Shown: positions 1-62,852 of the stretch, in pieces
Numbering within the stretch: position 1 is the first letter of the stretch
Layout: each line of letters begins with the position of its first letter
Assembly (NCBI GenBank): GCA_045599245.1
Contig: JAZRVP010000002.1
Coordinates: 4,488 to 68,487, forward strand
DNA: 64,000 nucleotides
From: Myxococcota bacterium
GTDB taxonomy: Bacteria > Myxococcota_A > Bradymonadia > UBA4248
Reading direction: 5' to 3'
Position numbers and translations under genes: made by a program
Notes under the pieces: model-generated
Told to the model about the DNA's origin: nothing
What the model saw: only the letters and a program-made list of their open reading frames with translations
Databases searched by the model: none

Positions 1-569
1 ACGGGGCTGTAGCCCTGAGAATGCTTGAGGTATCCGGAATCACCGATTCCTACGAGCACATCGGCTACAGGATGATGCCATGTTGCCGAAACGCCGACGG
101 TATCATAAAAGATTTCGGCGAATTTCATGTCATACAGGCCGAGATCACCGAAGTAGTAATCGAGCGTACCGACCTGCCAAACGACATCTTTGATGAGAAC
201 GTTGCCGGCCAAGGCATAGAGCTGCGTCAGGGAGAACTGTCCAAGTGTTCCGTTGAGCCAATCGGCGGCATGGGCCGATCCGCCCTCGATTTTGGCATGA
301 AGACTTGTCCACACTTCGTTGGTTCCCGGCGTCTGACGTATCAGCTGCAGACGCATCTCAAGGGCCGCCCACTGTGTTTCATTGAGCAATCGACCGGAAA
401 TATTCCACAATCCCAGTTTTGACCAGCCGCCCTGAAAATCCGGACGGGCACCAATTCTGAAATAACCCCCTGCTGAAAATCGATCTTCTTCAGCACTCGC
501 GTTTACAGGTGCTCCCAATGCCACGATCATGGATACCACGGCGGCAAACAACGCTAAAATTCGGCTCAT
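1..569 (-). CDS. putative outer-membrane beta-barrel porin-like protein (5' part; gene continues past window start)
   Basis: Minus-strand ATG at 567-569 opens an uninterrupted frame to position 1 (translated by hand: MSRILALFAAVVSMIVALGAPVNASAEEDRFSAGGYFRIGARPDFQGGWSKLGLWNISG...). It is absent from the ORF track because it has no in-window stop. It has an N-terminal signal peptide and an alternating hydrophobic (beta-strand) pattern. It lies 34 nt downstream of the isoamylase gene on the same strand. Confidence 0.6.
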   Translation of the reverse strand, partial: MSRILALFAAVVSMIVALGAPVNASAEEDRFSAGGYFRIGARPDFQGGWSKLGLWNISGRLLNETQWAALEMRLQLIRQTPGTNEVWTSLHAKIEGGSAHAADWLNGTLGQFSLTQLYALAGNVLIKDVVWQVGTLDYYFGDLGLYDMKFAEIFYDTVGVSATWHHPVADVLVGIGDSGYLKHSQGYSP

Positions 570-603
570 TTTTTTATTCATTATTCCGTCCTGTCTGAAT
601 TCA

Positions 604-3240
604 TTACATCGTTGCAATTACGATCGAGTGATCTTTTACGCCATACGTGCCTGACGTCTTGTTGCTGCCGGACAGCCACACATTATTCGTCGTATTGGCA
701 TTGATACCCTCACCTTTCAGGTATTCATCCGAGTCATAATACCGTTGTGTATCGAGAAGAATCGTCCATTCTCCCTCGGGAAGATGGAACGTTTTGTCGC
801 CGTATTCCATGTTGATCATCACATACAGAGCTTTTGTCTTGTCTGTCGCTGGATAATACATGCCCACCGATTTGCTCTCCCAGCAGCCGACTTCGACATT
901 TTCACACCCATCCGGCCACCACCATTGAACCGACCCGGTGTATTCACTTGGAGCAAGGAATTCTTTGTATTGCTTGCGGATTTTAATCACTTCACGAACG
1001 AAATCGTGCATTCTCACGTTCTCAGGCCGCGAAAGCCAATCACCCCATCTAAACCAGTTCCATTCGTTATCGGCACTGTCTGAATAGGCATCGTTGTTGC
1101 CGTACTGCGATCTCATATACTCATCTCCACCAAGAATTAACGGCGTTCCCGGTGTCATCAGCAAAAACGTAAACGCATTGCGGATCATCTGACGTTTCAG
1201 CTCTTCATGATAGGAATCAATGCAAGCGCCCTGGTTGTCGATATTTTCAATGCACGTCCTTTCACATTCCTCTTTTCTGTCACCCCAGTCTTTGCATTTG
1301 TTATAACAATAATCGCATTCTCCCTTATAACAGTCTCGCTGACACCAGTTATGGGAACGGTTATCCGTCGATCCGTTGTCCGTTTTGCAAAATGCATTGT
1401 AAGGCTGATCACAGCAGATTTGATTGAGTACACTGCAGCCGTTTTGTTTCTCCCAATAGGTCATCACGTCATACAGCGTAAAACCGTCATGAACCGTGAT
1501 CACATTCACGGAATGATACGGTTTTCGGCCATTGCTCGACTGAAACATATTGCTCGAACCCGTCAGGATATTCCCCATATCGACCGTTCGCTGCCAATCC
1601 GGAGAAAGATTCTCGGTTTTATTGAGTTTGACATCGTTATTGATGAAATCACGAACCATATCGCGGAAACGGCCGTTCCATTCACCCCATCCTTTCGTGT
1701 CGTCTTTGGTCGATTTCGGGAAACAGCCATTGACGTAATAACCGCCCCACGGTTCGGCGACAAAACGCGTATGATACTTGTTCAAGACTTCGTCTTCGAT
1801 GATCTCCTGAAGGACTGTCGTTCCCGTGTTGTCAAACCAGTATTTGTTGTCGTAACCGGCATCGCCATAGTCTTTGGTATCACCGTCGTCCGTGACCTGC
1901 TCTTCATGGACGCCAAGTGCCGTTGCAAGGTCGAAACGGAACCCATCGACGTGCATTTCTTCAACCCAGAATCGCAGGTTATCGAGGATCAGACGTTTGC
2001 CAGGCGTATTGTTGCAGCGGAACTGGTTGCCGACACCCGGTTCATCGAGATAACTCTGATTTCTCACGCCGCTCGTATCTTTCTTCAGGTGATAATATTC
2101 TTTGTTGTCAAGCCCTCGGAACGAATACAAAGTCAGAGCCGTTCTGTCGTCAAAATCTTTTTGTGCCCCGTACGAATTGGCCGGATCCTGGACTTTGCTT
2201 CGCCACAAACCGCCTTCACCCGTATGGTTATAGACGACGTCCAATATGACTTCGATGCCGTTCTGATGCAGCTTATCGACCATTTCTTTGAACTCGTCGT
2301 GAACACCGTTCGTCTTGCTCTGATTAATGCTCGTTGCAAAACGCTGTTCCGGGGCAAAGAAAGCAATCGTGTTATAACCCCAGTAACCGCCGTCATCCGG
2401 CTTTTCTGCCACCGGAAGCAGCTCGAGTGCGGTCACGCCGAGATCCTTCAGATAACCAGCCTTTTCACCGATGCCCTTCCAGGTTCCACGATTCTGAACA
2501 TCGTCGAGTGCCCGCATAGTGAACCCTTTGGGATGGGCTTCGTAATAAATGACGTCGTTCTGGGCATGCCCCTCAAAGGCATCGCCTTTCATGCGGTTGG
2601 CACGCCAGACTGCTTCGTTTTCACTCCACTGATACTCGCTCTTGATGACAACCGATTTCGCAGCCCCTTTCCAGTCCGAAATGCCTCGCGCCGAACCTGA
2701 CGCCGGATTGCCTCCGCTGTACCAGTCAAAATCGTGACTAATGCGGCGCGCATACGGATCGAGCAGAAGTTTGTTCGGATTGTACCGGTTGCCTTCCTCG
2801 TCACAGTCCGTGATGTAGCCTTCCGTCGTCCCCGGCTTAAATTTCTCTGTGTACGGCCAGTTCGGACCAAACGCGATATACCCGTAATGCGTCCCCACTC
2901 CGATGCCATACACAAACTGCGTCCAAATCCCGCTCGCTTCATCCTTCGTCATCGGTATCCGCATAACAGGAAGATCCGTATCCGGGTTGTTCGAATCAAA
3001 TATCAAAACTTCGACGCGCGTCGCATGCTTCGCATAAACGGCAAAATTGACCCCCTTGTCGATGATCGTCGGACCAAGATGATCGAACAGCGCATCCCCT
3101 TTCACCCCCTCCAAAGACGGGGCAATTGCCGACGATTCGTACACGTGATGACTGCTCGTTTCATCACAGGATATCCCCATGGCACCAGACAATACCAGTG
3201 AGGCGGCTAATAATACTTTTCCCAAAAAAGCATGTTTCAT
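604..3240 (-). CDS. GH13 glycogen-debranching enzyme / isoamylase (GlgX-type) lipoprotein with Cys-rich insertion
   Basis: ORF 604..3291. The likely start is MKHAFLGKVLLAASLVLSGAMGISC at 3240 (signal peptide + Cys). It has an N-terminal CBM48/E-set-like segment (VNFAVYAKHATRVEVLIFD...). GH13 conserved regions are DVVYNHTGEG, GFRFDLATALG, AEPWG, ITVHDGFTL. Confidence 0.85.
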   Translation of the reverse strand: MKHAFLGKVLLAASLVLSGAMGISCDETSSHHVYESSAIAPSLEGVKGDALFDHLGPTIIDKGVNFAVYAKHATRVEVLIFDSNNPDTDLPVMRIPMTKDEASGIWTQFVYGIGVGTHYGYIAFGPNWPYTEKFKPGTTEGYITDCDEEGNRYNPNKLLLDPYARRISHDFDWYSGGNPASGSARGISDWKGAAKSVVIKSEYQWSENEAVWRANRMKGDAFEGHAQNDVIYYEAHPKGFTMRALDDVQNRGTWKGIGEKAGYLKDLGVTALELLPVAEKPDDGGYWGYNTIAFFAPEQRFATSINQSKTNGVHDEFKEMVDKLHQNGIEVILDVVYNHTGEGGLWRSKVQDPANSYGAQKDFDDRTALTLYSFRGLDNKEYYHLKKDTSGVRNQSYLDEPGVGNQFRCNNTPGKRLILDNLRFWVEEMHVDGFRFDLATALGVHEEQVTDDGDTKDYGDAGYDNKYWFDNTGTTVLQEIIEDEVLNKYHTRFVAEPWGGYYVNGCFPKSTKDDTKGWGEWNGRFRDMVRDFINNDVKLNKTENLSPDWQRTVDMGNILTGSSNMFQSSNGRKPYHSVNVITVHDGFTLYDVMTYWEKQNGCSVLNQICCDQPYNAFCKTDNGSTDNRSHNWCQRDCYKGECDYCYNKCKDWGDRKEECERTCIENIDNQGACIDSYHEELKRQMIRNAFTFLLMTPGTPLILGGDEYMRSQYGNNDAYSDSADNEWNWFRWGDWLSRPENVRMHDFVREVIKIRKQYKEFLAPSEYTGSVQWWWPDGCENVEVGCWESKSVGMYYPATDKTKALYVMINMEYGDKTFHLPEGEWTILLDTQRYYDSDEYLKGEGINANTTNNVWLSGSNKTSGTYGVKDHSIVIATM

Positions 3241-3253
3241 TGGACTGTCCTTA

Positions 3254-5671
3254 TTATTTTGCTTTCCAGATGATGATCTGACGATCACCACTGAGTGTTA
3301 TCGTTGTCGTTTCTGAAATGCTCCGCGTTTCATCCAAAAGATCGACCCAGCCGTTCTGCCCCACTGTGACGCCATGCTCCGTAAGGACATAAGTCTGGTC
3401 ATCATCTCTGTCACTGATCCCCACAAGGATTGACTCCGTCCCGTCACTCACGACATACATGAAGGATCGTTCATAGGCATCCACAACCTGAATCCTGCCC
3501 CGTCTAAAGGCCGGATGTTTGTGGCGAAGCGTTCCAAGAGTCTGAACATGCGCCAGCGTCTGCTTCTGCAATTCATTGAGTGCCCCGTCAAACTCCATCA
3601 TGCGGCGATTGTCCGGATCATTGGCCCCTTCAAGCCCGTATTCATCGCCGTAATAAAGCATCGGTATTCCCGGCGTCGTGAGCAAAAATGTCCACGCCAG
3701 CTTGAGCTGATGATAGGCCCATGCATCCTGAACTTCACTGTTGTTTCCGTACTTTTCCTCGCTGTCGTGATGAATATGAGATATCGCTCTGGCAACATCG
3801 TGATTGCCAAGAAACGTGCTCATCAGCGCATCGCCGTACACATTTTCGTTGTCCAGAATATGATCCTTCAAATTATAAAATAGACCATTGCCGTTCATGA
3901 TCGTGTCTCGAAGCGAATTATAGAGCGGGAAATCAAACTGCCCGTGAAGCATATCGTCCCCGATATACTGCTTGATCTTGTCCTTCCCGTCGAACGTCTC
4001 ACCAACGATATAAAACGTCACTCCGGTTTTCCTGAACAAGTCATCGATACCGGCACGCAAATCACGAATAAACTGTATCGGCATGTGCTTGACGGCATCC
4101 AGTCGGAACCCGTCGATATCCGTTTCCTGGATCAGCCACCGTGCATGGTCAACCACAAATTCCCTCACCTCCGGGATCTCAAAATTGAAGTCCGGAAGAT
4201 TGTCACTAAACCAGCACGTCTCCGGTATCCTGTCCCAATTTTTCTGCGACAGCTTTCCATTTTCTGTCGGCCCTTCGCAAAGAACCGAATCGCGGTTGGC
4301 AACATCCACATAATTAAACCATTCCGGATGCTGCAAATATACGGGACTGTCATCCGCCACGTGGTTGACCGCAAAATCGACAAGCACTCGCATGCCCCTG
4401 TCATGACACGCCTTCACGAGCGACTTGAGCTCGTCCATCGTCCCGAAATGCGGCTCGATCGGCGTGATGAGAACCCCATTGGACGATGAATTGGCATACA
4501 TCGAGGCCGTCTTTTCCGAATACCCCGTCGTCACTGGCCAGTACGAGTGATACGCACACGACTGCCCCAACGGTTTCTGCGTGTTCATGCTCACCGACGA
4601 GAGCCACAAGGTATTCACCCCAAGGCGTTCAAAATATCCATCCTCAACCCTGGCCTTCAAACCGGCAAAATCCCCTCCCTGCCAGTCATACGTGATGCCA
4701 AGCTTGCCGTCATTCGCCGTATTCCCATTGTTGAAGCGATCGATAAAGGCAAAATACAGAACCGCATCCTTCCAGCTAAATTCCGTTTCTTCATTCCAGA
4801 CCGGAACAAACAGAGAAGCTGCCTCAGCCCCGTTGGACGTTTTCAAACTTACAACATAGCTATTTTTCTTCTCCGTCCCAACGTTTTCACTGAAGGAAAG
4901 CTCCTTTCCGCTCTGCGTTTTGACGATCCGGTCGCCTTTTTTGACGACGATTTCGGGACTCTCCGCCAGCTGATACATATCGTCCAGAGTCACAGAAAAC
5001 GACACGCTGCCTTCTGAAACAACCGGTTTTCCCGAAAGAACCAGCTTCGGCTTCACGGCATCCCCACAACTCAGTGCACGAATGCTCAAATTCTCGCCGT
5101 TATCATTGCCGGACGTCTTCCAGCCTCCATCCCCCCACGATGCCACATAAAATTTGTACCCATACGTTCCCGGCTTGAGAAGGAATGAACCGTCAAATAC
5201 GCCATCCGATGTTTCCGTCAGCTGATACTCTCTGTGCTGCCAGCCGTCGAATTCTCCCGTGACAAAAACCTTCTGCCCCTTCGCCTCCGGATTCTCATAG
5301 TGGAATCTGGAATAGCATGCTTCAACCGCCTCACACACACCGGCATTGTCGACATAACCCAGTTCACAGCCGCAAACCGCCTTGTCTCCCTCAACACGGC
5401 ATGTCTGATTAGGCTCCGTACACATCCCGACACAAACGCTTTGCGCCACACACTGTCCGCCCTGTTCCGAATATCCGGTATCACACACAGTGCACGCCCC
5501 ATCGGCATCCGTCGTATATCCCTTTTCACACTGGCAGCGCTCCATTGTCACGTTCATATAACAGCTTCCATGACCACACGCCTTGCTGCACATCGTATAG
5601 GAATCATGACTGTCCTCACAGCCATTCAACACCACTGCGCCAAGCCCTAAAATCCACCACAGTTTCCGCAT
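3254..5671 (-). CDS. GH13 alpha-amylase lipoprotein with N-terminal EGF-like Cys-rich module and CBM48/CBM20-like starch-binding domain
   Basis: ORF 3254..5695. The start is MRKLWWILGLGAVVLNGC at 5671 (lipobox). GH13 regions are VDFAVNH, GFRLDAVKHM, IVGETFDG, FLGNHDVARA. The CBM-like stretch is KVFVTGEFDGWQ...YGYKFYV. The upstream gene lies 13 nt away on the same strand. Confidence 0.85.
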   Translation of the reverse strand: MRKLWWILGLGAVVLNGCEDSHDSYTMCSKACGHGSCYMNVTMERCQCEKGYTTDADGACTVCDTGYSEQGGQCVAQSVCVGMCTEPNQTCRVEGDKAVCGCELGYVDNAGVCEAVEACYSRFHYENPEAKGQKVFVTGEFDGWQHREYQLTETSDGVFDGSFLLKPGTYGYKFYVASWGDGGWKTSGNDNGENLSIRALSCGDAVKPKLVLSGKPVVSEGSVSFSVTLDDMYQLAESPEIVVKKGDRIVKTQSGKELSFSENVGTEKKNSYVVSLKTSNGAEAASLFVPVWNEETEFSWKDAVLYFAFIDRFNNGNTANDGKLGITYDWQGGDFAGLKARVEDGYFERLGVNTLWLSSVSMNTQKPLGQSCAYHSYWPVTTGYSEKTASMYANSSSNGVLITPIEPHFGTMDELKSLVKACHDRGMRVLVDFAVNHVADDSPVYLQHPEWFNYVDVANRDSVLCEGPTENGKLSQKNWDRIPETCWFSDNLPDFNFEIPEVREFVVDHARWLIQETDIDGFRLDAVKHMPIQFIRDLRAGIDDLFRKTGVTFYIVGETFDGKDKIKQYIGDDMLHGQFDFPLYNSLRDTIMNGNGLFYNLKDHILDNENVYGDALMSTFLGNHDVARAISHIHHDSEEKYGNNSEVQDAWAYHQLKLAWTFLLTTPGIPMLYYGDEYGLEGANDPDNRRMMEFDGALNELQKQTLAHVQTLGTLRHKHPAFRRGRIQVVDAYERSFMYVVSDGTESILVGISDRDDDQTYVLTEHGVTVGQNGWVDLLDETRSISETTTITLSGDRQIIIWKAK

Positions 5672-5862
5672 GAATTCATCCTCCGAGCAGAACATACCAA
5701 TCTCATATTGCCTTATAACTTATTTATGCTCAAATTGGTAATTTGTAATTGACCCCAACGCACACACTCAACTCGATTCGACAATTTCTTTTCTCATCCC
5801 GATTCTATGCAGCCGTGACACATCCCAAAGCCCCCATCTCGATTCCATTTTGCCCTTTTTTG

Positions 5863-5990
5863 AGGAGACGTGCGAAGCGCACGTCTCTGCTCGCCTATCG
5901 CGCGCAAACGCGCAATACGGCTCGCAGCGCCCGGCTATTTTGAAGGCAAAATACGCCGGGCGCATTTTATCGGAATGCCGGCGCTTTGCG
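5863..5990. repeat. cluster of GC-rich hairpin repeats in the divergent promoter region (family member R1)
   Basis: Hairpins seen directly: gagacgtgcg-aa-gcgcacgtctc, cgcctatcgcgcg-caaa-cgcgcaatacggc, gcgcccggctattttg-aagg-caaaatacgccgggcgc. Half-sites are shared with the other intergenic repeats. Confidence 0.6.
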
Positions 5991-6155
5991 CCGCCCAACT
6001 CAAATCACCTATTGTTTCCCCACATCCACTCACTTGCATGACATGACCTCGATGTGTTCCATTTCCAGCTTCTTCCTGCTACTATTCTCTTTAGGCACAA
6101 ACCGCCGTGATTTTTTATAAAAGCCGTGTGACACCACATTTCACCAAGGACAATT

Positions 6156-9100
6156 ATGAAAAAATACATCTTTTTATGCGCAGTATTAAGTCTCGGACTT
6201 GTCGGATGCGGCGATGACTCAAACAACACGTCAGACCCCGTCGAAACTTCTCAATGCGGCAACTCAAAAGTCGAAAACGACGAAGCCTGTGATGACGGAA
6301 ACACAAACGCCGATGACGGCTGTTCTGCCGACTGCTCCCAGGTCGAAGACGGCTGGACATGCCCGAAAGAGGGCGGAAAATGCACGAAAAAAGATTCAGA
6401 ACAGGATCCGCCACTCGACGACGACGCCAAATGCGGCGACGGAAAAGTTACCGGCACAGAAGCCTGTGATGACAGCAACACCGATGACGGCGACGGATGC
6501 ACCGCTGACTGCTCAAAAATCGAAGATGGCTGGACATGCCCAAAAGAGGGCGGAAAATGCGCCAAATCCTCCCAATGCGGCAACAAATCAATTGAAGGCG
6601 ATGAAGCCTGTGATGACGGCAACACCGATGACGGAGACGGATGTGCCGCCGACTGCTCAAAAATTGAAGACAACTATCACTGTCCAACCCCCGGTTATCC
6701 ATGCATCCCTAATTCATGCGGCGATGGCATCACCGATACTTCAGCCGGTGAAGACTGCGACGCTGGCGATGAGAACATCGACTATGGCGATGAGAACGCC
6801 TGTTCGGAAAGCTGCCACCCTGCCCATTACTGCGGCGATGGTCTTCTCGATCAAATCGACATCGACAACGGCGAGGAATGCGATGCCGGTTCAGACACTT
6901 CCACTGAATACAACGGCTGCACATACGACTGCATGAGAAATAATTATTGCGGCGATGGCATCATTCAGTCCGCGAACGAACAGTGCGATGACGGAAACGA
7001 AGACGATGGGGACGGGTGTTCCTCAAGCTGCAAAATAGAACCGAATTTCACCTGCATCACTCAGGACGGAAAAAGCGTCTGCAAGTCCCTTTTGTGCGGA
7101 AATGGAAAAATCGACGAAGATACCGCTGAAACCTGTGACGACGGCAACCGTAACAATGGTGACGGTTGCTCCATGATATGCCTCGTCGAACACACTTTCC
7201 GATGTACCACCGACGAAAATACAGGAACATCCAAATGTGAAAGTACATGCGGCGACGGCATTGTCGATAAAGACACCGGTGAAGCCTGCGACGATGGAAA
7301 TACAAACGACGGCGATGGCTGTTCTTCACAATGCACGCTTGACCCCGGCTATGTCTGCAACGGCACACACTGTTTCGCCAGAGCCTGCGGTGACGGCATC
7401 GTCGCCGGACAGGAAGAATGTGACGATAAAAATACCGACTCCGGTGACGGCTGTTCAAAATTCTGCAAACGCGAAGAAAATTATCATTGCGACAAAGCGG
7501 GAGAACTCTGCCAGCTGGATGTCTGCGGCGACGGCCTCGTAACCGGTGACGAAACTTGTGACGAAGGCCATACCGATCATCCCGAGAACAAAACCGATGG
7601 CTGCCTCAATAGTAAGGTTCAGATGGGCTGGAAATGCGACACGGCAGGCACATCCTGTGTCTCCGCAGTCTGCGGAAACGGCATTCTTGAAGGCGCCGAA
7701 ACCTGTGAAATCCCTGACGCTGATCCCTCCGGTTGCTGCTTAGGCTGCGTTATTCAGCCATTCTGCAAGTGTGATACTGATGGTAAAAACTGCGAAAAAG
7801 GTTCTTGCGGCAATGGCAGGCTCGAAGCCGGTGAACAATGCGATGATGGCAATCTCACTGCCGGTGACGGCTGCGATCCCGTCTGTCGCATTGAGTCCAT
7901 CTTTGAATGCACCCGCGACGACGTAAACGGAACGGCTCAATGCCGCCCTGTGTGCGGCGACGGCGTTACCCTCTGGGACCTCGGCCCCGATGGCAAACCG
8001 TTCGAAGAATGCGACGACGGCAATCTCATCAACGGCGACGGCTGTTCAAGCGACTGCAAAATTGAAACTGGCTTCAGCTGCACGGAATTCGACACTTCCA
8101 CCCTCCCACCAACCCTTAACCTGCCAGTCACATACCGCGACTTCAAAGGACGCGGTGACCGCCGCTCCGGCGCTCAGACCGCAGACGCCGTTAACGGATA
8201 CATGGGCACAAACACATACCCCGCTGACTGCAAACCTACCCCTCTTAACGGCGACGGACATCCCGACTTCGGCGTCACTTCTTATGGCGAACTCCAGCAG
8301 GGAAACGTCCTGAACACCCTCGACAAGGACGGAAAACCCGTTCGAAGCGACCTGCGCCTGCGTTCCGCCTACTATGCCTGCAAGGAATCATTCCATGACT
8401 GGTACCGCGACCGCGAAGGCGTCAACTATCCCGTCAAAACTCACATCCCGGTCAACCTCGTCTCCGGTACCAAAAAATACGAGTTCGCAAACTCGGATTT
8501 CCACCCCATCAAAAATGATGGTTTCAACCGCCCCGGTTCCCCAAGCCCCGGCAACGCCGTCGGTTACATGTTCACTTCAGAGCTCAAAACCTATTTCAAA
8601 TACAACGGCAACGAAAGCCTCTCCTTCTACGGAGACGACGATGTCTGGATCTTCATCAATGGCAAACTCGCTGTCGATATTGGCGGCTGCCACGGCTCTC
8701 TGACAGGCACTCTGCAGCTCGACGACAAACGCGGCATCGGCACCGTTCACGTCAACGACCTCAATGGACATGACCACCCTTCCAATAACGTCCAGCTCGA
8801 CATGTATCCCGGCGGCATCTACGAAATGGCTCTCTTCCATGCCGAACGCTGCCAGGGCGGTTCCGCCTTCAAATTCACAATCGACAACTTTGTCAACACG
8901 GGTTCAAGTACATGCCAGTCCAATTGCGGTGACGGCTTCGTTCGCGGCGCTGAAGAATGCGATTATGTGACGAACAATCTCGATAACGTCGAAGAACAGC
9001 ATGCCAACGGATGTAACCACTGCAAAATCGCCCCATGGTGCGGTAATGGCAAGATCGAAGCCGGTGAAGCCTGTGATCCCGGTGCCGAGGAAACGGACTG

Positions 9101-9656
9101 GTGTTTTGGTCCCGGCAGTGAAAAGCCTTGCCAGCTCAAGACTTGCGGCAACGGCACGTTTGAACCCGAACACGAACAGTGCGACAAATCAGCTCCGGAA
9201 ACGGACGAAAATAAACACGAAAACTGCTCGGATATCTGCCGATTTGTGGGCTGCGGCGACGGCATCCTGCAGCCTGGCGAGGATTGTGATGACGGCAACC
9301 AGTCAGATGATGATATGTGTACAAGAAAATGTACAATTCCTATCTGCGGTGACGGCATCGTTTCCCCATCCATTGGCGAGGTCTGTGATGACGGCATAAA
9401 CGACGGAAGCTATGGCGGATGCGGCCTCGGGTGTACATATCAGACGCCCAAATGCGGCGACGGCATCATCGATGGCACACACGGCGAAGAATGCGATGAC
9501 GGCGAAGAAAACAACGTCGGCGGTTACGGCAAATGCAAAAAAGACTGTAAACTCGACGAACACTGCGGCGACGGCATCCTTCAGGAAGCCTTTGAACAGT
9601 GCGACCCCGGTTTAACCGCCGATTGCACATCAGCCTGTGAACACAGAATCAATTAA
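6156..9656 (+). CDS. Cys-rich repeat (CGDG..E.CDDGN..DGDGCS..C type) surface lipoprotein with central fibro-slime/PA14-like domain
   Basis: Lipoprotein signal MKKYIFLCAVLSLGLVGC. About 25 repeats of CGDGxxxxxEECDDGNxxxGDGCSxxC (Myxococcus cysteine-rich repeat type). The central segment ~8110..8910 (...GYMFTSELKTYFKYNGNESLSFYGDDDVWIFINGKLAVDIGGCHG...) matches the PA14-like fibro-slime domain architecture. Alternate-frame ORFs inside it are artefacts of the repeats. Confidence 0.85.
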   Translation: MKKYIFLCAVLSLGLVGCGDDSNNTSDPVETSQCGNSKVENDEACDDGNTNADDGCSADCSQVEDGWTCPKEGGKCTKKDSEQDPPLDDDAKCGDGKVTGTEACDDSNTDDGDGCTADCSKIEDGWTCPKEGGKCAKSSQCGNKSIEGDEACDDGNTDDGDGCAADCSKIEDNYHCPTPGYPCIPNSCGDGITDTSAGEDCDAGDENIDYGDENACSESCHPAHYCGDGLLDQIDIDNGEECDAGSDTSTEYNGCTYDCMRNNYCGDGIIQSANEQCDDGNEDDGDGCSSSCKIEPNFTCITQDGKSVCKSLLCGNGKIDEDTAETCDDGNRNNGDGCSMICLVEHTFRCTTDENTGTSKCESTCGDGIVDKDTGEACDDGNTNDGDGCSSQCTLDPGYVCNGTHCFARACGDGIVAGQEECDDKNTDSGDGCSKFCKREENYHCDKAGELCQLDVCGDGLVTGDETCDEGHTDHPENKTDGCLNSKVQMGWKCDTAGTSCVSAVCGNGILEGAETCEIPDADPSGCCLGCVIQPFCKCDTDGKNCEKGSCGNGRLEAGEQCDDGNLTAGDGCDPVCRIESIFECTRDDVNGTAQCRPVCGDGVTLWDLGPDGKPFEECDDGNLINGDGCSSDCKIETGFSCTEFDTSTLPPTLNLPVTYRDFKGRGDRRSGAQTADAVNGYMGTNTYPADCKPTPLNGDGHPDFGVTSYGELQQGNVLNTLDKDGKPVRSDLRLRSAYYACKESFHDWYRDREGVNYPVKTHIPVNLVSGTKKYEFANSDFHPIKNDGFNRPGSPSPGNAVGYMFTSELKTYFKYNGNESLSFYGDDDVWIFINGKLAVDIGGCHGSLTGTLQLDDKRGIGTVHVNDLNGHDHPSNNVQLDMYPGGIYEMALFHAERCQGGSAFKFTIDNFVNTGSSTCQSNCGDGFVRGAEECDYVTNNLDNVEEQHANGCNHCKIAPWCGNGKIEAGEACDPGAEETDWCFGPGSEKPCQLKTCGNGTFEPEHEQCDKSAPETDENKHENCSDICRFVGCGDGILQPGEDCDDGNQSDDDMCTRKCTIPICGDGIVSPSIGEVCDDGINDGSYGGCGLGCTYQTPKCGDGIIDGTHGEECDDGEENNVGGYGKCKKDCKLDEHCGDGILQEAFEQCDPGLTADCTSACEHRIN

Positions 9657-9718
9657 CCATTCACGTTGCACAGCCCCGTTCCCTGAATGATTTAACCGGG
9701 GTGCTGAAATATTAAAAC

Positions 9719-9813
9719 GAGCCGTATTGCGCCAAAGGCGCGATAGGCGAGTCGCGACGTGCGGTTCGCACGTCGCAGGCATGGCGTATTGGCCAAAGGC
9801 CGATAGCCATGCC
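9719..9813. repeat. three adjacent GC-rich hairpins (family member R2)
   Basis: gccgtattgcgcc-aaa-ggcgcgataggcgag; gcgacgtgcg-gtt-cgcacgtcgc (perfect 10-bp stem); ggcatggcgtattggcc-aaa-ggccgatagccatgcc. Confidence 0.6.
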
Positions 9814-10680: not shown

Positions 10681-12252
10681 TTATGCATTCCATGTTTCAA
10701 TCACACAATCGTGCAATTTTTTATCCTTGTCGTAATTAACGCCGCATAAAAAGACTTCGCCTTTGTAATCACCAAAGAGATTGACATATCGACGGGATTT
10801 TATCTGTGCAATGGCGCCTTCGGCGTTTTGGTCCCATTTGAGCTCGACGACGATGGCTGCACGGCCGGACTTGATGGGAATCATCACGATATCGGCAAAG
10901 CCGGCACCGGATGGAAGTTCGCGAACAAAAATATATTCTTTTCGTGCCGAGGCACAGGCATACATGACAACAAGTGCAAGGTCGTTTTCGCGGTTGTAGG
11001 TCAAAACCGAGGATATATCGTCATGAACTTTTTGAATTTCAGCTGCGACGGTCGCTGCATCGCGTGAACGAAGTGCATCCATGATGTGCTTAGAACGGGC
11101 ATAAGCCTGAACAAAACCTTCCATGCCGCAGTCTTCCAGGGCTACTTCATACTCCATTCGAATTTCTTCATTTGGAATAAAACATTCGCCTGACGTTTCA
11201 TCATATCCAAGATATCCCAGATGAATGAGAAGTGTTAATACATCGTTTTTACTATTCAAATCGGTCATTTTATTTTTAAAATGCAACGTTTTGACAGGAA
11301 CGCGATCGCCCGTCATCAGACGGGCAACATCGTCTTTCAATCCATCGAAATTCATCGTGATATGGTCTGATATCTGTTCATACGTCCCGGTTTTAGTCCA
11401 GTAACTCTTAAAACGGCCACGCATCATCGACTGATAAATCGAGTTTGGATTATAGATATGTTCAATATCACAGATGTGATAACCGTCGTACCATCTGCTG
11501 CATTCTTCAAATTCCAGGTTGTAGCGGGAGCAAAGCTCCTGAACTTCGTCTTTGGTAAAACCGACGTATTTGGATAAAACATCGGAATCGACCATAGTGA
11601 ATTCACGAAACATGTTCATGGACGATTCCGTGTTGTATTTGACGATCGGGAAAATACCAGTCACATAAGCGAGTGCAATGCAATCATTTAAAGCTCTGCT
11701 CTTAAAGAGCTGACGCAGAAAATCGACGTATGCTCTTTGAATTCGATCGGGGAACTGATGCCTGAAGATGCCGTCCCATTCGTCGATAATGATGACAAAC
11801 TGTTCGCCATATTGAGCATAAACATAACACAAAGCATCGGGGATCGATTGTGCATAGTCATCTGGAATTTCCCACTTGGCTTGCATTTCAAAAATAAGAC
11901 ATCGATTTGTTTTGGGTAAAAAATCCTCTGGTTTGCTGCAGTCCATAAACTGCTGTGCATCCCAATAAAGCACGTTGAATTTGTTCAATCCCTTTTCAAA
12001 ACTGGGGTGTTTTGCGATTTCGAATGGTTCAAAAAGTGAACGACTGTCGACGGTTTTGTCATAGTATGCCGCGATCATGTCAGCCGCTATCGACTTGCCA
12101 AAACGTCGAGCCCGGCTGACGCACACGAAGCGATCGACCGAAAAAAGCCACTGATTGAGGTGCGCAATCAATCCCGTTTTGTCGACATAAAAGTAAGAAT
12201 TATCGACAACTTGTTTAAATCTGTTCAATCCCGTGTTCAGAAACATTCCCAT
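10681..12252 (-). CDS. AAA-ATPase-like / PD-(D/E)XK nuclease family protein (DUF1703-type architecture)
   Basis: ORF 10681..12312; the likely start is MGMFLNTGLNRF at 12252. The N-terminal P-loop-like part is YVDKTGLI...VSRARRFGKS. The C-terminal region has a restriction-endonuclease-like fold (..IVVELKWDQNAEGAIAQIKSRRY..), typical of the AAA-ATPase_like + PDDEXK family common in Bacteroides-type genomes. Confidence 0.7.
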   Translation of the reverse strand: MGMFLNTGLNRFKQVVDNSYFYVDKTGLIAHLNQWLFSVDRFVCVSRARRFGKSIAADMIAAYYDKTVDSRSLFEPFEIAKHPSFEKGLNKFNVLYWDAQQFMDCSKPEDFLPKTNRCLIFEMQAKWEIPDDYAQSIPDALCYVYAQYGEQFVIIIDEWDGIFRHQFPDRIQRAYVDFLRQLFKSRALNDCIALAYVTGIFPIVKYNTESSMNMFREFTMVDSDVLSKYVGFTKDEVQELCSRYNLEFEECSRWYDGYHICDIEHIYNPNSIYQSMMRGRFKSYWTKTGTYEQISDHITMNFDGLKDDVARLMTGDRVPVKTLHFKNKMTDLNSKNDVLTLLIHLGYLGYDETSGECFIPNEEIRMEYEVALEDCGMEGFVQAYARSKHIMDALRSRDAATVAAEIQKVHDDISSVLTYNRENDLALVVMYACASARKEYIFVRELPSGAGFADIVMIPIKSGRAAIVVELKWDQNAEGAIAQIKSRRYVNLFGDYKGEVFLCGVNYDKDKKLHDCVIETWNA

Positions 12253-12584
12253 GATGCGCCTCCTCACCAAGCATGCGGCATAACATGCAATACAAACATT
12301 AAAATAACACACCCATGATGCTTTGGCGAGTGTACCTGTTGTTTTGAGATACGGCCCGTTTCAATTTTTCTCGTTCCACGCCGGACTTCATGTGGAATAC
12401 GCCTTACAAGGCGCTTCGCGCCTTAGTTTTATGCCCAAAGCTTTTTCAAAATATCGATTTTTTCGTCTTGACGGAATGAATTTTCTTTTTATGAAACAAT
12501 GTCTTTTATGCGATGTAGAAGACCGTGTTTTACTTTTTAATCAATATAACAGTCCCACTTTGTACACATCAATTATGAGTTGCC

Positions 12585-13126: not shown

Positions 13127-13200
13127 CGGCCGGGTGTATCGGCAAAGCCGATAGCCCGGCCCAAGCGAGCCGTATTGCGCGTAGCGCGATAGGCGAGTTT
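13127..13200. repeat. two GC-rich hairpins between convergent genes (family member R4)
   Basis: gccgggtgtatcggc-aaa-gccgatagcccggc and gccgtattgcgc-gtag-cgcgataggcgag; the second is almost identical to the first hairpin of R2. Confidence 0.6.
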
Positions 13201-18077: not shown

Positions 18078-19832
18078 ATGATTCAGGCCTTCGTATCGCT
18101 CAAGCCGCAGCAACCATCGCGAACGGAGTCCGGAATGCGGAGTTTTTTTGAAGCTCTGCAGGGAGCTGTTTTCAGTCAACCCACGATATTCCGGACCAAT
18201 GCGGATGCATCAATCCGACCATACTCGCTTGACGCAGTGTGTGAAGCTGCATTAAATCCGGGCTGCAAGTTTGTCGTTTTGAGAGCAGAATGCGAAAAAT
18301 TCTGGCAATGTACCTTCCTTCTTCCGGACAAGCAGGGAATGGGGGCATTATTTTTCGATCTTCAACGCCAGGAAAATCCGCGACGTCTCTCGCCAGACAG
18401 CCTGATAGAGATGTTCAAGAAGCTCTATCTTTCTCTTCAGCCGCGTCTTATCCGCATCGGCGATTCAGAAGCAAGAGAGAAGCTCAAGAGCCGTCACGGT
18501 CTGGTAATGATGCCTGGTTTGGGACGTATTGAGTGGCTTCAGATCGTTTCGCGAGAAGTTTATGGCGACATTTATAACTCATCAGAGCTCATTGCATCGC
18601 CAGGCTTTTCGACCGAAGTTTGGGAAGACGGTGCTCTCTTTATGCGAGTTTATGACGATCCCAATGACTGGGATCTCGAAGACAATATTTCTCGCGCCAA
18701 CTTCGTTCCCGGTTTTCTCGCAGGTATTGCCAAGATTTCTGACAGCGAAAAACAGAAAGAGACGCTGCGCGATCTTGAAAAAATCTGGACGCGTGCTGAA
18801 AAGACGGCTGAAAAAGCTTACGAAGTTCTCGATGCAGACCCGAACGCCAAGAAAGATACAGGCGTCAAGGTAAAAGAAGAAAAACAAGTGGTCGATGAGA
18901 CACCGCTTGTGAGCGAAGCTGCTGCCGAAGAAGGCGATGATGCCAAACTGGCTATCGTCAAGAAGAGACTCGAAGCCGATTATAAGATCACCGATATCGT
19001 TAAAGCCGGTCAGGAAGGCATTTGTACACTCTTCAAAGTCAAAGCCGAAAGAAGACCTGTCTTCTACGCAACCTATCAGGATATCGATCGCAAAGTCTTC
19101 ATCCTTACCGATATTGAAGACCTTGGCCGCTTCCTCGCCATTAACGACTGCGCTATCAAACCCGAGTGCTTTGACAAAATTAAATCACTCACAAAAAAAT
19201 ACTATCATCCCGACTATCAGCTGCTTGATTCTCTCGATGAACTGCCCGATACAGTCATTCGCGATCGCAGAATGCCCGATATGCGCGCAGAATTTAAGCC
19301 AGCCGCCGTTGAAAATATTGACGGAACACTTTCTCTCACATTCTGGTTCTATAAACCCGAACTTCTCGGTCTTGAAACCATTACATTTACACAAATGGAT
19401 GGCTGGCCCATGCAGCTCAACGCCAAAGTCCAGTGTACGGATATGGAAAATGAACCGGAAGTCAAGCCTGACCCCGTTCAGGAAGTCAAAGCTGAACCGG
19501 CAAAAGTCGAAGAGCCTGCAAAAGCTGAAGAACCTGCAAAAGAAGATGAAAAGGCAAGTGAAGGAGAAAGCCCGGTCTTCAATCTCGTCGACGACAATAA
19601 ACCTAAAGCCAAGAGAAAATCCGCTCAGGCAGAAGAAGAGGATGAAGTTCCTGAAAAAGCCGATGACAAAGGCGGCTTAAGCACCGGCGCAAAAGCTGGT
19701 ATTGCGGCAGTCTTCATCATTATCTTGATTGCTATTGTACTCTATGCTCTGGGTGTATTTGGTGGTGGTCAGGCAGACAACTCTTCAGTGCCGTCCGAAC
19801 CATCGAATGCGGCTGAACAGCCTGCCGAATAA
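18078..19832 (+). CDS. hypothetical protein with C-terminal transmembrane anchor, acidic EPAK-type low-complexity linker
   Basis: ATG at 18078 with gaggag SD. A single C-terminal TM helix (GIAAVFIIILIAIVLYALGVF) follows a KVEEPAKAEEPAKEDEK linker. No recognisable domain. Confidence 0.7.
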   Translation: MIQAFVSLKPQQPSRTESGMRSFFEALQGAVFSQPTIFRTNADASIRPYSLDAVCEAALNPGCKFVVLRAECEKFWQCTFLLPDKQGMGALFFDLQRQENPRRLSPDSLIEMFKKLYLSLQPRLIRIGDSEAREKLKSRHGLVMMPGLGRIEWLQIVSREVYGDIYNSSELIASPGFSTEVWEDGALFMRVYDDPNDWDLEDNISRANFVPGFLAGIAKISDSEKQKETLRDLEKIWTRAEKTAEKAYEVLDADPNAKKDTGVKVKEEKQVVDETPLVSEAAAEEGDDAKLAIVKKRLEADYKITDIVKAGQEGICTLFKVKAERRPVFYATYQDIDRKVFILTDIEDLGRFLAINDCAIKPECFDKIKSLTKKYYHPDYQLLDSLDELPDTVIRDRRMPDMRAEFKPAAVENIDGTLSLTFWFYKPELLGLETITFTQMDGWPMQLNAKVQCTDMENEPEVKPDPVQEVKAEPAKVEEPAKAEEPAKEDEKASEGESPVFNLVDDNKPKAKRKSAQAEEEDEVPEKADDKGGLSTGAKAGIAAVFIIILIAIVLYALGVFGGGQADNSSVPSEPSNAAEQPAE

Positions 19833-23455: not shown

Positions 23456-26035
23456 GTGAACTACCGAAGACTTTTCTCAATCAGCATTTTATCAGCACTC
23501 ACCGTGGCCGGATGTGCAGACAGCGTCTCCAACCCAATTCAGCCGGCAACCTGCGGAAACAATGTCCGTGAACTCAATGAAGTCTGTGATGGAACCGATT
23601 TAAACAATCTTTCATGCAGCCATTTTAAAATGGGCTCAACGGGAACGCTGGCCTGTGCAGCCGACTGCACCAAATATGAGATTTCAGGCTGTTCGGCACC
23701 AACCTGTGGAAACAATATCCTGGATGCCAACGAAGACTGTGATGGCGCACTGTTTGCGAACATGAAAAATGTCTGTCCCGCCGGAACCACGGGAACACCC
23801 GTATGTGTCAACTGCCAGATCACGGGCTGCACCCCTGTCACGCCATCCCCAACCTCGAAATGCGGAAACAACATACTTGAAACTGGCGAAGTCTGCGACG
23901 GCACGGATGTCGGCGGCAAAACATGCAACGACTTCATCGCCGGTTCTCAGGGTACGGTATCATGTCAGACAGACTGTCTCGCCTATAATGCCACCCAGTG
24001 CAAACTCGAAACCTGCGGAAACAAGTCCATTGATGCCGGAGAGGACTGTGACGATACCGCATTTGCCCCGGGCAAAGACAAATGCCCGGACGGTTATACG
24101 GGAACACCGGTTTGTGACGTAAACTGCACAATATCGGGCTGCACACCGATCGCCAAAGACTGCGATGACGGCGCATCCAAATGCGAAAATAATGCAGTGT
24201 CACAGTGCGCCGGCGGAAAATGGGTTGAAATCCAAAAATGCGAATATGGATGCAACGGAAATGTCTGCAACACCGAAGCTCCTGCCGGCTGCAACAACAA
24301 CAAACTCGATGCCGGTGAAGATTGCGACGGAACTTTGTTTGCCGATGGCAAAGACAAATGCCCGGACGGCTACACCGGCACTCCGGTCTGCAACGAGAAT
24401 TGCGTCGTCACGGGTTGCACACCGACACAGGAAGAAAAGCCCAAATGCGGCGATGGTGAAGTCAACCAGGAGAGTGAGGAATGCGACGGAACAAAATTCG
24501 CCGCTGGAAAAGACACATGTCCCGACGGATACACCGGCACACCGAGTTGTGACGCCGCGACATGCAAAGTCACCGGTTGCACACCTGTAACTGACACACC
24601 CAAATGCGGTGACGGTGAAGTCAACCAGGAAAGTGAAGAATGCGACGGAACAAAATTCGCCGCTGGAAAAGATACATGTCCCTCAGGATATACAGGCACT
24701 CCGGTTTGTGACCCCAACACGTGCAAAGTTACCGGATGCACGGAAGAATCGAGTGAAATCGAAATTAAGTGTACAGACAACGTACTCCAGATGTGCGAAA
24801 ACGGCACATGCATCGATGACAAAGATTGTACGGTCAGTGCCAAATTATGCGATGCTCAGAAAGGCGAATGCGTCGAACACGATTTCACATGCGACGGCAC
24901 AAAAATGGTCTTCGGCAACGACGGAACCGTTGACTGCAGCAAACGAAAAGACGGTCAGGTCGGCTGCGCCGATGCATTCGGCTGTGCCGATCAGTACTGC
25001 TCCGGAAACAAGCTCATGGACGGCACCAACGTCCAGATTGACTGCTCAAGTTTCGGCGGCACATGTGACAACACACTCGTCGAATGCGTCTGCACTGAAG
25101 ACGTCATCGGCTGTTTCGACAACGGTTCGAAAAAAATTTCCGTCGTGTGCGATGAAACAGGTGCCGAGATTGATTACTGCGCCGGCGACTGCGACGACAA
25201 CAACGGCTGCCTCGCCAAAGAACCTTCCTGCGGCGACGGCGAAATCAATACCGTCAACGGCGTGGCCGAACTCTGCGATTACGACAGCAACAACAAGCCC
25301 ATCTGGACTTCTGTTTACAACCAGTACTTCGTCAACTACGAACCAACCTGCAACTTCTATAATTACAGCCAGGGCGGCGACGTCATCTACGTCTCCGGTG
25401 CACCTTCCTGCAAAAACAAAAATAACAAGTGCAGCATCGATGTCTCGACCTGCAATGTCGCAACCGACGCCGATTTCGTCGATGTTTATTCCTGGAATTT
25501 CTCATCCATGGACTACATCAAAAATCTTACCAACAGCACGAACAGCAACAAAATCGGCGGTGTTGCCATTCATCACACGAGTGAAAATGACGGATTTAAA
25601 GTCAGTCAGTATGTCAAAGAAGATAAAGCCTGGCAGATCGGTTCCTGGACAAAAGGCACAAATCCCGATTTTGAAAACACTTATATGTGGTTCAAGGCCG
25701 GTGATGCCAAAAACAACGTCGTCCAAATTACCTTTGACATCAAACGCGCTGAAACCGGCCCGCAAAAAGCCCAGCTTCAGTTCTTTGACGGCACCACGGC
25801 TCTCAAAGAAAAAGTCAACAACAAGGAAGTCGATGCCAAATCCGCCGTCATTGATATACCAAAGAAAGACACCTATTATCCCGTCACGATCATTTATCGC
25901 CCCGATCGCTATCATGCCAACGAAGTTGTCGAAAACTTCACGTTCAAACTCACGGGTTATTCGGCCACAACAGGCGATGGAAACGGCTCAATGTCGATCA
26001 AAAATGTCGTCGTTAAAAGTGTGAATGCCCTCTAA
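23456..26035 (+). CDS. Cys-rich repeat surface lipoprotein (about 8 repeats TCGN..D.GE.CDGT.F....D.CP.GYTGTP.C.-C.VTGCTP) with C-terminal beta-sandwich-like domain
   Basis: Lipoprotein signal MNYRRLFSISILSALTVAGC. The protein-level repeats are very regular. There is a near-identical ~150-nt tandem DNA duplication at 24441..24745. The C-terminal ~300 aa are non-repetitive. Confidence 0.85.
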   Translation: MNYRRLFSISILSALTVAGCADSVSNPIQPATCGNNVRELNEVCDGTDLNNLSCSHFKMGSTGTLACAADCTKYEISGCSAPTCGNNILDANEDCDGALFANMKNVCPAGTTGTPVCVNCQITGCTPVTPSPTSKCGNNILETGEVCDGTDVGGKTCNDFIAGSQGTVSCQTDCLAYNATQCKLETCGNKSIDAGEDCDDTAFAPGKDKCPDGYTGTPVCDVNCTISGCTPIAKDCDDGASKCENNAVSQCAGGKWVEIQKCEYGCNGNVCNTEAPAGCNNNKLDAGEDCDGTLFADGKDKCPDGYTGTPVCNENCVVTGCTPTQEEKPKCGDGEVNQESEECDGTKFAAGKDTCPDGYTGTPSCDAATCKVTGCTPVTDTPKCGDGEVNQESEECDGTKFAAGKDTCPSGYTGTPVCDPNTCKVTGCTEESSEIEIKCTDNVLQMCENGTCIDDKDCTVSAKLCDAQKGECVEHDFTCDGTKMVFGNDGTVDCSKRKDGQVGCADAFGCADQYCSGNKLMDGTNVQIDCSSFGGTCDNTLVECVCTEDVIGCFDNGSKKISVVCDETGAEIDYCAGDCDDNNGCLAKEPSCGDGEINTVNGVAELCDYDSNNKPIWTSVYNQYFVNYEPTCNFYNYSQGGDVIYVSGAPSCKNKNNKCSIDVSTCNVATDADFVDVYSWNFSSMDYIKNLTNSTNSNKIGGVAIHHTSENDGFKVSQYVKEDKAWQIGSWTKGTNPDFENTYMWFKAGDAKNNVVQITFDIKRAETGPQKAQLQFFDGTTALKEKVNNKEVDAKSAVIDIPKKDTYYPVTIIYRPDRYHANEVVENFTFKLTGYSATTGDGNGSMSIKNVVVKSVNAL

Positions 26036-26074: not shown

Positions 26075-26102
26075 AGCCCGTTTTTACGGGCTTTTTTTTT
26101 GT
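26075..26102 (+). terminator. Rho-independent terminator (preceded by a second hairpin ggcgcc-ttga-ggcgcc at 26052..26067)
   Basis: gcccgt-tttt-acgggc followed by T9. Confidence 0.75.
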
Positions 26103-26169
26103 GTTTTTAAACCCAAATCGAGTAAAATCAGTGTTTTGTGATGGTCGTTTTTTATCTGGAGTTCCTGTT

Positions 26170-30132: not shown

Positions 30133-30281
30133 GCGATCCTATGCGCCGCAGACGCATACGGATCGCGGCGGCGCGGCCTAATAGATACGGCCGCGCTGCT
30201 TTTTTTTAAGAAAATCGCCGGGCGTATGGCGCAGGCCATAGACCGGCGCGCGGGGCGTATGGCGCAGGCCATAGTCCCGCC
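30133..30281. repeat. hairpin cluster plus terminator plus 2x tandem GGGCGTATGGCGCAGGCCATAG repeat (family member R6)
   Basis: gcgatcctatgcg..cgcatacggatcgc; gcgcggcc-taatagatac-ggccgcgc followed by T8 (terminator of the 26170 gene); then two tandem copies of gggcgtatggcgcaggccatag(a/t)cc. Confidence 0.65.
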
Positions 30282-62400: not shown

Positions 62401-62852
62401 GAAAAAAGCCCCAATATCACTACCATATTCACTTATTTACCGACAAACCATTTTCATCGTTATTGTGCTGGCTATAGCCTTGCATCCCTCTAACCAAGCA
62501 CAAATGCACAAGGCTTCAAAGGAAACGCCAGGCTGCAAGTTGCCCCCGGATAACGCATCAAACCTCACGACCAACCATCATCTTGCCAAGACGATATGCA
62601 GCCACATTCCAGATCAAAATCACCTATTCAGGCAAACTGAATACGACCTTATGACCGGTTCAGGCGACATACACCACGATGAAATCGATGACGGCTAGAC
62701 TGTTGTTTTATGCGGCAATGAGAATTTCGAACACACCAGCACACGACTTTCCCCCTCCCCGAATTATTTTGTAAAATTTATGTCCTTTTTTCCGAAAAAT
62801 GCCCAATTAAATGCATACAAGTTCGTTCAGTCACAATAAATTGAGGTTCAAT

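Follow-up and report, generated by a model that had tools for sequence, protein, structure and literature searches.

The gene at positions 6156–9656 on the forward strand of a 64,000-nucleotide stretch of contig JAZRVP010000002.1 (assembly GCA_045599245.1), a stretch that is referred to in its full length as the window, encodes a Cys-rich acidic lipoprotein, and it is fairly likely to represent a single paralogue within a large family of surface lectins or adhesins that carry a lipid anchor and in which a PA14-like head is borne on a scaffold of repeats. Judged by its profile scores, the protein clearly belongs to the fibro-slime and DUF4215 families, and its membership of the PA14 family is probable but marginal. 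The gene is divergent from an operon for starch degradation, and the original prediction had suggested for it co-regulation with that operon and a role in binding starch or glycogen rather than cellulose. The adjacency to the amylase gene looks like a species-level arrangement and not like a conserved functional linkage.

In the proposed mode of action, Cys18 would be lipidated and would anchor the protein in the outer membrane, as its lipobox suggests, while the 20 acidic modules, probably stapled by disulfides among the 108 cysteines other than the lipidated one, would act as a rigid stalk or scaffold whose length is fixed. The head of ~280 residues, a putative and divergent PA14-type β-sandwich of weak fold similarity, is predicted to bind carbohydrate, probably through Ca2+ at its GDDD motif. 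A head that evolves faster than the stalk, together with tandem paralogues, may provide the family with a repertoire of glycan specificities.

Predicted lipid anchor and repeat stalk

The open reading frame (ORF) comprises 1166 codons and starts with an ATG, with an AGGA sequence located 7 nt 5′ of it. The 1166-residue product contains 109 Cys (9.3%), 148 Asp, and 157 Gly residues, has a net charge of −145 and a pI of ~4.1, and is built, in this order, of 13 repeats, a central head, and 7 repeats. Conservation was read from two alignments, A1 with 29 sequences of the head (residues 640–925) and A2 with 68 full-length homologues, and profile matches were obtained with hidden Markov models (HMMs). 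The features of the gene, all on the forward strand, are as follows.

6156..9656 (+), the whole gene, DUF4215/fibro-slime family lipoprotein (ORF translation, family HMMs, composition)
6156..6209 (+), lipoprotein signal peptide MKKYIFLCAVLSLGLVG and then the predicted lipidated residue Cys18, followed by GDDS (translation)
6255..8075 (+), 13 N-terminal Cys-rich acidic repeats (TIGR02232/DUF4215), residues 34–640 (self-HMM, i-E 2e-17 to 6e-11; NCBIfam, Pfam)
8076..8924 (+), central head of ~280 aa, residues 641–923, an N-terminal subdomain and then a PA14-like β-sandwich (alignment A1, AlphaFold2, Foldseek)
8550..8876 (+), fibro-slime (TIGR02148)/PA14 (PF07691) match, residues 799–907 (HMM scores)
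8631..8642 (+), GDDD motif, residues 826–829, candidate counterpart of the Ca-binding D-cis-D motif (A1 and A2 columns)
8736..8795 (+), His-/Asn-rich loop insertion of ~20 residues, IGTVHVNDLNGHDHPSNNVQ, residues 861–880 (A2; A1 columns 340–370)
8838..8849 (+), [HQ]AER motif, residues 895–898, with A896, E897, and R898 invariant (A1, A2)
8925..9650 (+), 7 C-terminal Cys-rich repeats, residues 924–1165 (self-HMM; Cys invariant in A2)

The N-terminus of the protein, MKKYIFLCAVLSLGLVGC, carries a canonical lipobox, LVG|C, which on inspection fits the bacterial pattern [LVI][ASTVI][GAS]C. As C18 is also invariant in the 68 homologues, the earlier description of the product as a lipoprotein is borne out. 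The residues that follow the cysteine are characteristic of the family, in which C-[GS]-[DE]-D-S is the most frequent motif at this place; the C-G-D-D-S of the present protein fits it, and similar acidic stretches follow the lipobox cysteine in the neighbouring amylases.

The repeats are matched by TIGR02232 (myxo_disulf_rpt, NCBIfam) with 409.5 bits against a cutoff of 20.8 (E 8.7e-126), and by DUF4215 (Pfam; PF13948) with 247.7 bits against a cutoff of 27 (E 6.3e-75). Thus the Cys-rich repeats of the original prediction are present, but their number, which had been put at about 25, is exactly 20 according to an HMM built from the repeats themselves, with 13 copies in the N-terminal array and 7 in the C-terminal one. 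The N-terminal repeats mostly have 6 Cys and a period of ~46–50 aa, and the C-terminal repeats have 4 Cys each and a period of 31–38 aa. The same self-HMM detected the motif nowhere else in the window in any reading frame. The DNA of the repeats (repeat families D1–D13) is only 60–89% identical between copies, and the repeats are therefore old. In the 68 full-length homologues (44–60% identity; alignment A2), nearly all cysteines, the lipobox cysteine, and the number and order of the repeats are kept, so that the stalk represents a fixed architecture and not an array of variable length.

A single copy of the TIGR02232/DUF4215 repeat (YCGDGIIQKDQGEQCDDMNKINGDGCSLFC...) resides within human pappalysin-1 (residues 865–920, E 2.8e-7; PDB 8a7d, 7ufg, and 7y5n). 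The repeat is present inside both PAPP-A and PAPP-A2, which provide the only solved structure found for it, and the copy in pappalysin-1 is compatible with the repeat being a purely structural module. The literature searched contains one mention of TIGR02232/DUF4215, in a protein of diatom adhesive trails.

The gene has a GC content of 52–53%, compared with 45% in the regions downstream and 51% in the genes upstream. Horizontal transfer of 6156–9656, which the higher GC content had raised, was rejected in view of the upstream genes at 51% and of the codon demand of the abundant Cys, Gly, and Asp residues, which accounts for the excess over the downstream regions.

The central head

The fibro-slime domain predicted to be embedded in the protein is recovered by TIGR02148 (Fibro_Slime, NCBIfam; 66.4 bits, cutoff 45, E 2.4e-18) at residues 804–907, and both NCBIfam models proposed in the original prediction, TIGR02148 and TIGR02232, thus score above their cutoffs. 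The Pfam scan of the 1166-residue protein returned DUF4215 and PA14 alone, and the starch-binding carbohydrate-binding modules (CBMs) CBM20, 21, 25, 26, 41, and 48 were not detected in it.

The head was modelled by AlphaFold2 on the 29 sequences of A1 with a pLDDT of 81.7 and a pTM of 0.85; the N-terminal part of the model is poor in regular secondary structure, and the β-sandwich begins at about residue 757. The full-length model has a similar pLDDT (81.8) and a pTM of 0.57, with confident modules and a mutual arrangement that is not. The best matches of the head model in a Foldseek search of the PDB are Epa1A, Flo5, Flo1, Cea1A, and the PA14 domain of MpIBP, with E values of 4e-4 to 4e-3 and probabilities of 0.8–1.0. 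As these are Ca-dependent PA14 lectins, the model lends support to the general idea, already present in the original prediction, of a surface protein that may bind glycans. By sequence, the head profile has no match in the PDB at E ≤ 1, and NAD(P)HX dehydratase, which appeared among chance-level matches of a single-sequence PDB search at E ≤ 10, was rejected as a relative.

The Ca2+ ion through which PA14 lectins bind sugar is held by their D-cis-D motif, which is also the sole stretch conserved among distant PA14 domains (PMC6650083). The corresponding candidate strand of the present protein reads GDDD-V-W-I-F-I-N-G. The core fibro-slime motifs GDDDxWVFxNG and [HQ]AER are invariant in A1 and in A2; within the former, G826, D828, D829, and N835 are invariant in both alignments and D827 is at least 90% conserved. 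The N-terminal subdomain has conserved motifs of its own, LPxTYRDF, PDF, and WYRD (A1).

The head is more variable than the stalk. The A2 homologues share 52% of residues with the query in each of the two repeat arrays, but their identity drops to 31% in the N-terminal subdomain of the head and to 37% in the PA14-like part, and the least conserved stretches of the head are loops with insertions and deletions. The loop at residues 861–880 is absent from most of the 68 aligned homologues (gap fraction 0.5–0.7, identity 0.04), and it could mark a binding specificity of this paralogue. Because the head evolves faster and carries paralogue-specific loop insertions, different copies of the family probably recognise different glycans.

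The starch operon and the intergenic region

The operon adjoining the lipoprotein gene, the region between them, and the palindromic arrays on both sides of the gene comprise the following features.

1..581 (−), LamB-like porin, N-terminal 193 aa, truncated by the window edge (similarity to the L011 protein)
604..3291 (−), glycoside hydrolase family 13 (GH13) protein with CBM48, isoamylase/pullulanase-like, probable start 3240 (Pfam)
3254..5695 (−), GH13 α-amylase with an AMPK1_CBM (CBM48-like) module (Pfam)
5696..6155 (no strand), divergent intergenic region, 460 bp long as annotated and 484 bp with an amylase start at 5671 (ORF bounds)
5865..5995 (no strand), array of 4 GC-rich hairpins resembling repetitive extragenic palindromic (REP) elements (inverted repeats, folding)
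9718..9812 (no strand), array of 3 hairpins 3′ of the stop codon (fold z −9.7)

The divergent amylase/isoamylase/porin operon of the original prediction is confirmed, with AMPK1_CBM and CBM48 modules in the two GH13 enzymes and a porin identified through its relative. The porin fragment (581–1, −) has a signal peptide and, over 193 aa, shares 79% identity with a 518-residue protein that occupies the same operon position at locus L011 and contains the PF02264 LamB domain (3.6e-08). At loci L009 and L010, the porin position is taken by an unrelated protein of 624–629 aa without a Pfam match. The true start of the amylase is probably its second ATG, at 5671, because GGAGGA lies upstream of it and a 92%-identical homologue (P0122) has 805 aa and not 813. 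The start at 5671 yields a predicted lipoprotein N-terminus, MRKLWWILGLGAVVLNGC (...VVLNGC-EDS), with an EGF-like Cys-rich stretch after it. EGF domains (PF00008) are also carried by many homologues of the amylase in Myxococcota.

The arrangement of lipoprotein gene, intergenic region, and amylase gene is kept only at two loci with ~90% DNA identity to the window (L006 and L007), and it therefore shows stability within the species and no more. More distant homologues have other neighbours: FolB and the Fe–S subunit of succinate dehydrogenase in L002 (56% identity), an ABC permease and DUF3990 in L008 (52%), a protein kinase and proteins of no assigned function in L005 (51%), and a UvrD helicase in L001. 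UvrD also lies downstream of the homologue in L003, where the upstream side is off the contig, and further homologues are flanked by copies of their own family. An amylase neighbour was found neither at L001, L002, L005, L008, and L012, nor in a four-copy array of GCA_016648615.1, nor on the downstream side of L003.

The orthologous amylase operons at L009, L010, and L011 (56–60% identity) keep the amylase–CBM48-GH13 core and a third gene, and no DUF4215 gene lies beside any of the three. Upstream of the amylase are FG-GAP proteins in L009 and L010 and an M15 peptidase in L011. The proposed starch linkage is thus supported neither by the homologue loci listed nor by the three orthologous operons; two marks of an accessory protein of a starch operon, conserved linkage and a recognised starch-binding module, were not found for this gene and its product. 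In a family with many paralogues, gene adjacency in one species is weak evidence of function.

The intergenic region had been described as a hairpin-rich regulatory region shared by the gene and the operon. It is indeed rich in hairpins, and positions 5855–6000 fold with −74.3 kcal/mol, compared with −53.2 ± 3.7 kcal/mol for shuffled sequences (z −5.7). A regulatory role is not upheld, as the hairpins are dispersed palindromic repeats whose modules recur 3′ of the gene and in the intergenic regions 13128–13197 and 30214–30275. Each module consists of a GC stem, GTATxGGC, AAA, GCCGATA, and the complementary stem, and the modules form arrays of 2–4 between genes. In the sister strains (~90% identical), both arms of the first hairpin are altered by substitutions, and the alignment reads as a 9-bp stem that would still form, a pattern typical of REP-like elements. 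GC-rich hairpins between genes can therefore be dispersed repeats of this kind, and not regulators.

One of the modules, 9738–9774, is an inverted copy (89%) of 5867–5903 on the opposite side of the gene. A mobile or invertible segment bounded by this 37-nt inverted repeat was rejected because the same modules occur at 13128–13197 and 30214–30275 and each arm lies within a local hairpin array.

The alignment with the sister strains revealed no conserved control element shared by the two sides of the intergenic region. The ~190 bp proximal to the amylase are almost invariant, and the ~170 bp proximal to 6156–9656 are full of substitutions and indels, except for the ribosome-binding site. An Rfam scan of 5500–6300 gave no match, and a scan for promoters and terminators gave two weak promoter-like sites, at about the level of chance, and no intrinsic terminator.

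Family, known systems and competing readings

Among 8000 candidates scored, 7300 are homologues of the 1166-residue protein at E ≤ 1e-10, and the 120 best are full-length proteins of 1050–1900 aa with the same architecture. The nearest named homologues are 'MAG: DUF4215 domain-containing protein [Proteobacteria bacterium]' (MAG, metagenome-assembled genome), followed by Bradymonadales/Bradymonadia, Polyangiaceae, and Myxococcales. The relatives of the amylase are similarly distributed, with Proteobacteria bacterium MAGs at 55–67%, followed by Bradymonadia at 45% and by Myxococcota, Deltaproteobacteria, and Polyangia. The head profile matches small fibro-slime proteins of Nannocystis, Polyangia, Deltaproteobacteria, and Planctomycetota, and out of 1.84 billion it detects 7610 representative clusters at E ≤ 1e-3; at E ≤ 1e-10 the number is 4364. 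The source bacterium is probably an uncultured one from an animal gut. The label 'Bacteroidaceae bacterium' on locus L001 is probably an artefact of binning or naming and was not used for taxonomy.

The domain combination had been called characteristic of Fibrobacter, a claim that the homologues do not support: the nearest named ones are Proteobacteria-labelled MAGs, Bradymonadia, and Myxococcota, and no Fibrobacter name occurs in the lists for the 1166-residue protein, the amylase, or the head domain. The cellulose-binding fibro-slime proteins are Fibrobacter-encoded, and the present protein, by the names of its homologues and not by phylogeny, is not one of these. TIGR02148 is not confined to Fibrobacteres and averaged 0.2 copies per bacterial genome in a 2016 survey (PMC4704652). 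The Fibrobacter-specific family TIGR02145 is present in 17–119 copies per Fibrobacteres genome (PMC4704652), and the window proteins that were scanned contain no such paralogue. The combination of fibro-slime domain and Cys-rich repeats is thus not a Fibrobacter signature.

That the family consists of paralogues is clear: GCA_045599925.1 carries at least three copies, of which two are in tandem, four copies lie in a row on a 29,726-bp contig of GCA_016648615.1, and two tandem copies of the 1100–1200-aa family occupy 10001–17197 of L012. These tandem arrays represent local gene amplification of lectin-like lipoproteins.

Several known systems share part of this design. The genome of F. succinogenes S85 encodes ten fibro-slime paralogues, e.g., Fisuc_2031, Fisuc_1474, and Fisuc_0377, which have been implicated in adhesion (PMC4668043, PMC3079729). 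They are surface or extracellular proteins, and adhesion to cellulose fell by 62% when antibodies against them were applied (PMC4668043). Their regulation by cellulose has been questioned (PMC6204037). The present protein resembles them in its above-cutoff TIGR02148 match, in being a large secreted or surface protein with a signal peptide, and in belonging to a multi-paralogue family with some tandem pairs that is thought to be adhesive. It differs in that its nearest homologues are not Fibrobacter-named and no observation ties the window copy to cellulose. Its fibro-slime domain sits within a fixed 13+7 DUF4215 frame on a lipoprotein, which may set it further apart from the Fibrobacter proteins.

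The PA14 lectins of yeast (Epa1, Flo1, Flo5, and Cea1) and the RTX adhesins MpIBP and MhLap include the best structural matches; their D-cis-D strand resembles the GDDD-x-W-V-F-x-N-G context of the present head, and they likewise present a lectin head on a long repetitive stalk. In contrast to these adhesins, the head in the window has an extra N-terminal subdomain of ~115 aa, the stalk consists of Cys-rich modules and not of Ser/Thr-rich or Ig-like repeats, and the anchor is a predicted lipid where the known adhesins use a GPI anchor or type I secretion retention. With its 20 clear repeats, the protein also agrees with the TIGR02232/PF13948 proteins, and its homologues are named 'DUF4215 domain-containing protein' by NCBI. 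On its domains and relatives, it is to be placed outside the Fibrobacter cellulose-binding group and outside the known starch-binding families.

SusE and SusF of Bacteroides are surface starch-binding lipoproteins whose genes, like the present one, neighbour those for an amylase and an outer-membrane channel, and a starch- or glycogen-binding surface protein, analogous to these and co-regulated with the divergent amylase/isoamylase/porin operon, is an alternative to which we give little credence. The gene does adjoin a complete starch operon from which it diverges, and the two ~90%-identical strains keep this arrangement; the amylase, the isoamylase, and the 1166-residue protein are all lipoprotein-like with acidic residues after the cysteine, the head is lectin-like, and the window copy has a loop insertion of its own that may confer a distinct specificity. 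However, sequence and domain similarity to SusE/F is absent, the adjacency is absent at every more distant locus described above, the operons of L009–L011 have FG-GAP proteins or an M15 peptidase in place of the gene, and the enzymes carry their own CBM48-type modules where none of the starch-binding CBMs was detected in the lipoprotein. Co-regulation is likewise disfavoured, as the hairpins are generic dispersed repeats and the ~170 bp next to the gene are not conserved where the amylase-proximal part is. A more elaborate version, in which a lectin repertoire with a fixed 13+7 stalk and variable heads has supplied a copy with the 861–880 loop, recruited beside the amylase as a binder of starch or glycogen granules and hence a SusE/F analogue made from different parts, would be a decidedly long shot too.

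A plant-fibre or cellulose adhesin of the Fibrobacter type in a different gut bacterium appears very unlikely. The TIGR02148 domain is common to both, published work implicates the Fibrobacter proteins in adhesion to cellulose (PMC4668043, PMC3079729), and the homologues come largely from samples labelled as if they were ruminant-gut metagenomes; but the organism is probably not a Fibrobacter, the window ORFs that were scanned include no recognisable cellulase or hemicellulase, the domain is widespread and includes Myxococcota and Planctomycetota that are not specialised in cellulolysis, and the binding mechanism in Fibrobacter itself is not established. Somewhat closer to the evidence, and still unlikely, is an adhesin for cell–cell contact or prey recognition, directed at glycans of self, prey, or host in the manner of yeast flocculins and Epa proteins, or else a Ca-binding structural surface coat. 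Flo1, Flo5, and Epa1, the best structural matches of the head, are cell–cell or host adhesins, the relatives that come first by name belong to Bradymonadia and Myxococcota, which would place the organism near social or predatory members of these groups, and both the tandem expansion of paralogues with fast-evolving heads and the extreme negative charge of the protein would suit such a role. On the other side, the placement of the organism comes from homologue names, and the window contains no pointer to predation.

The assignment to a family of lipid-anchored surface lectins or adhesins also has points that weigh against it. The PA14 profile (Pfam PF07691) scores 23.5 bits, just below its cutoff of 24 (E 5.1e-05), and the TM-scores of the Foldseek matches are low (0.25–0.38), so that the call of the head fold rests on ranking and probability and not on tight superposition. 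The GDDD motif is a candidate equivalent of D-cis-D at the level of the motif and not of superposed structures, and its strand context was matched in part to the sequences of Flo5 and anthrax protective antigen. The source lineage is, with moderate confidence and from homologue names and not phylogeny, allied to Bradymonadia/Myxococcota and not to Fibrobacter, and the amylase adjacency, being real in this species, could reflect a functional role there.

The significance of the gene as a family member is modest, as the domain is known from thousands of protein clusters. Both of its domains are already catalogued, homologues are automatically annotated as DUF4215 or fibro-slime proteins, and many already carry a precomputed PF07691 annotation. 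To our knowledge, no structure of the fibro-slime domain has been solved and no ligand of it defined, Fibrobacter included, and the compact, confidently modelled head with its invariant GDDD is for this reason a reasonable first target for biochemistry.

Elsewhere in the window, a gene with AAA-ATPase_like and PD-(D/E)XK (PDDEXK_9) matches lies just downstream of the lipoprotein gene (10681–12312, −), and the homologue at L008 likewise has after it a gene that matches AAA-ATPase_like faintly. The ORFs at 38413–41847 (−), 23456–26035 (+), 18078–19832 (+), and 59030–60892 (+), of 1144, 859, 584, and 620 aa, have no Pfam or NCBIfam match, and a scan of the window proteins for myxobacterial families gave nothing decisive. 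A 959-residue Cys-rich secreted protein (49825–52704, −) has a weak MXAN_6577-like match (E 6.6e-06, far under the cutoff). A Ser/Thr protein kinase whose C-terminal domain is PEGA (34952–37528, +) and a 697-residue protein with a PP2C phosphatase domain (43169–45262, −) represent eukaryote-like signalling typical of Myxococcota-type genomes, and kinases also lie near family members in L005 and L012. A 1343-residue protein (26101–30132, +), which combines PKD, two CARDB, and a PPC domain at its C-terminus, is encoded in the most GC-rich part of the window, around 28–34 kb, with 56% compared with 45–50% elsewhere; a TPR protein and an esterase come after it. A YhgA-like (Transposase_31) gene is located at the window end (62811–63830, +).

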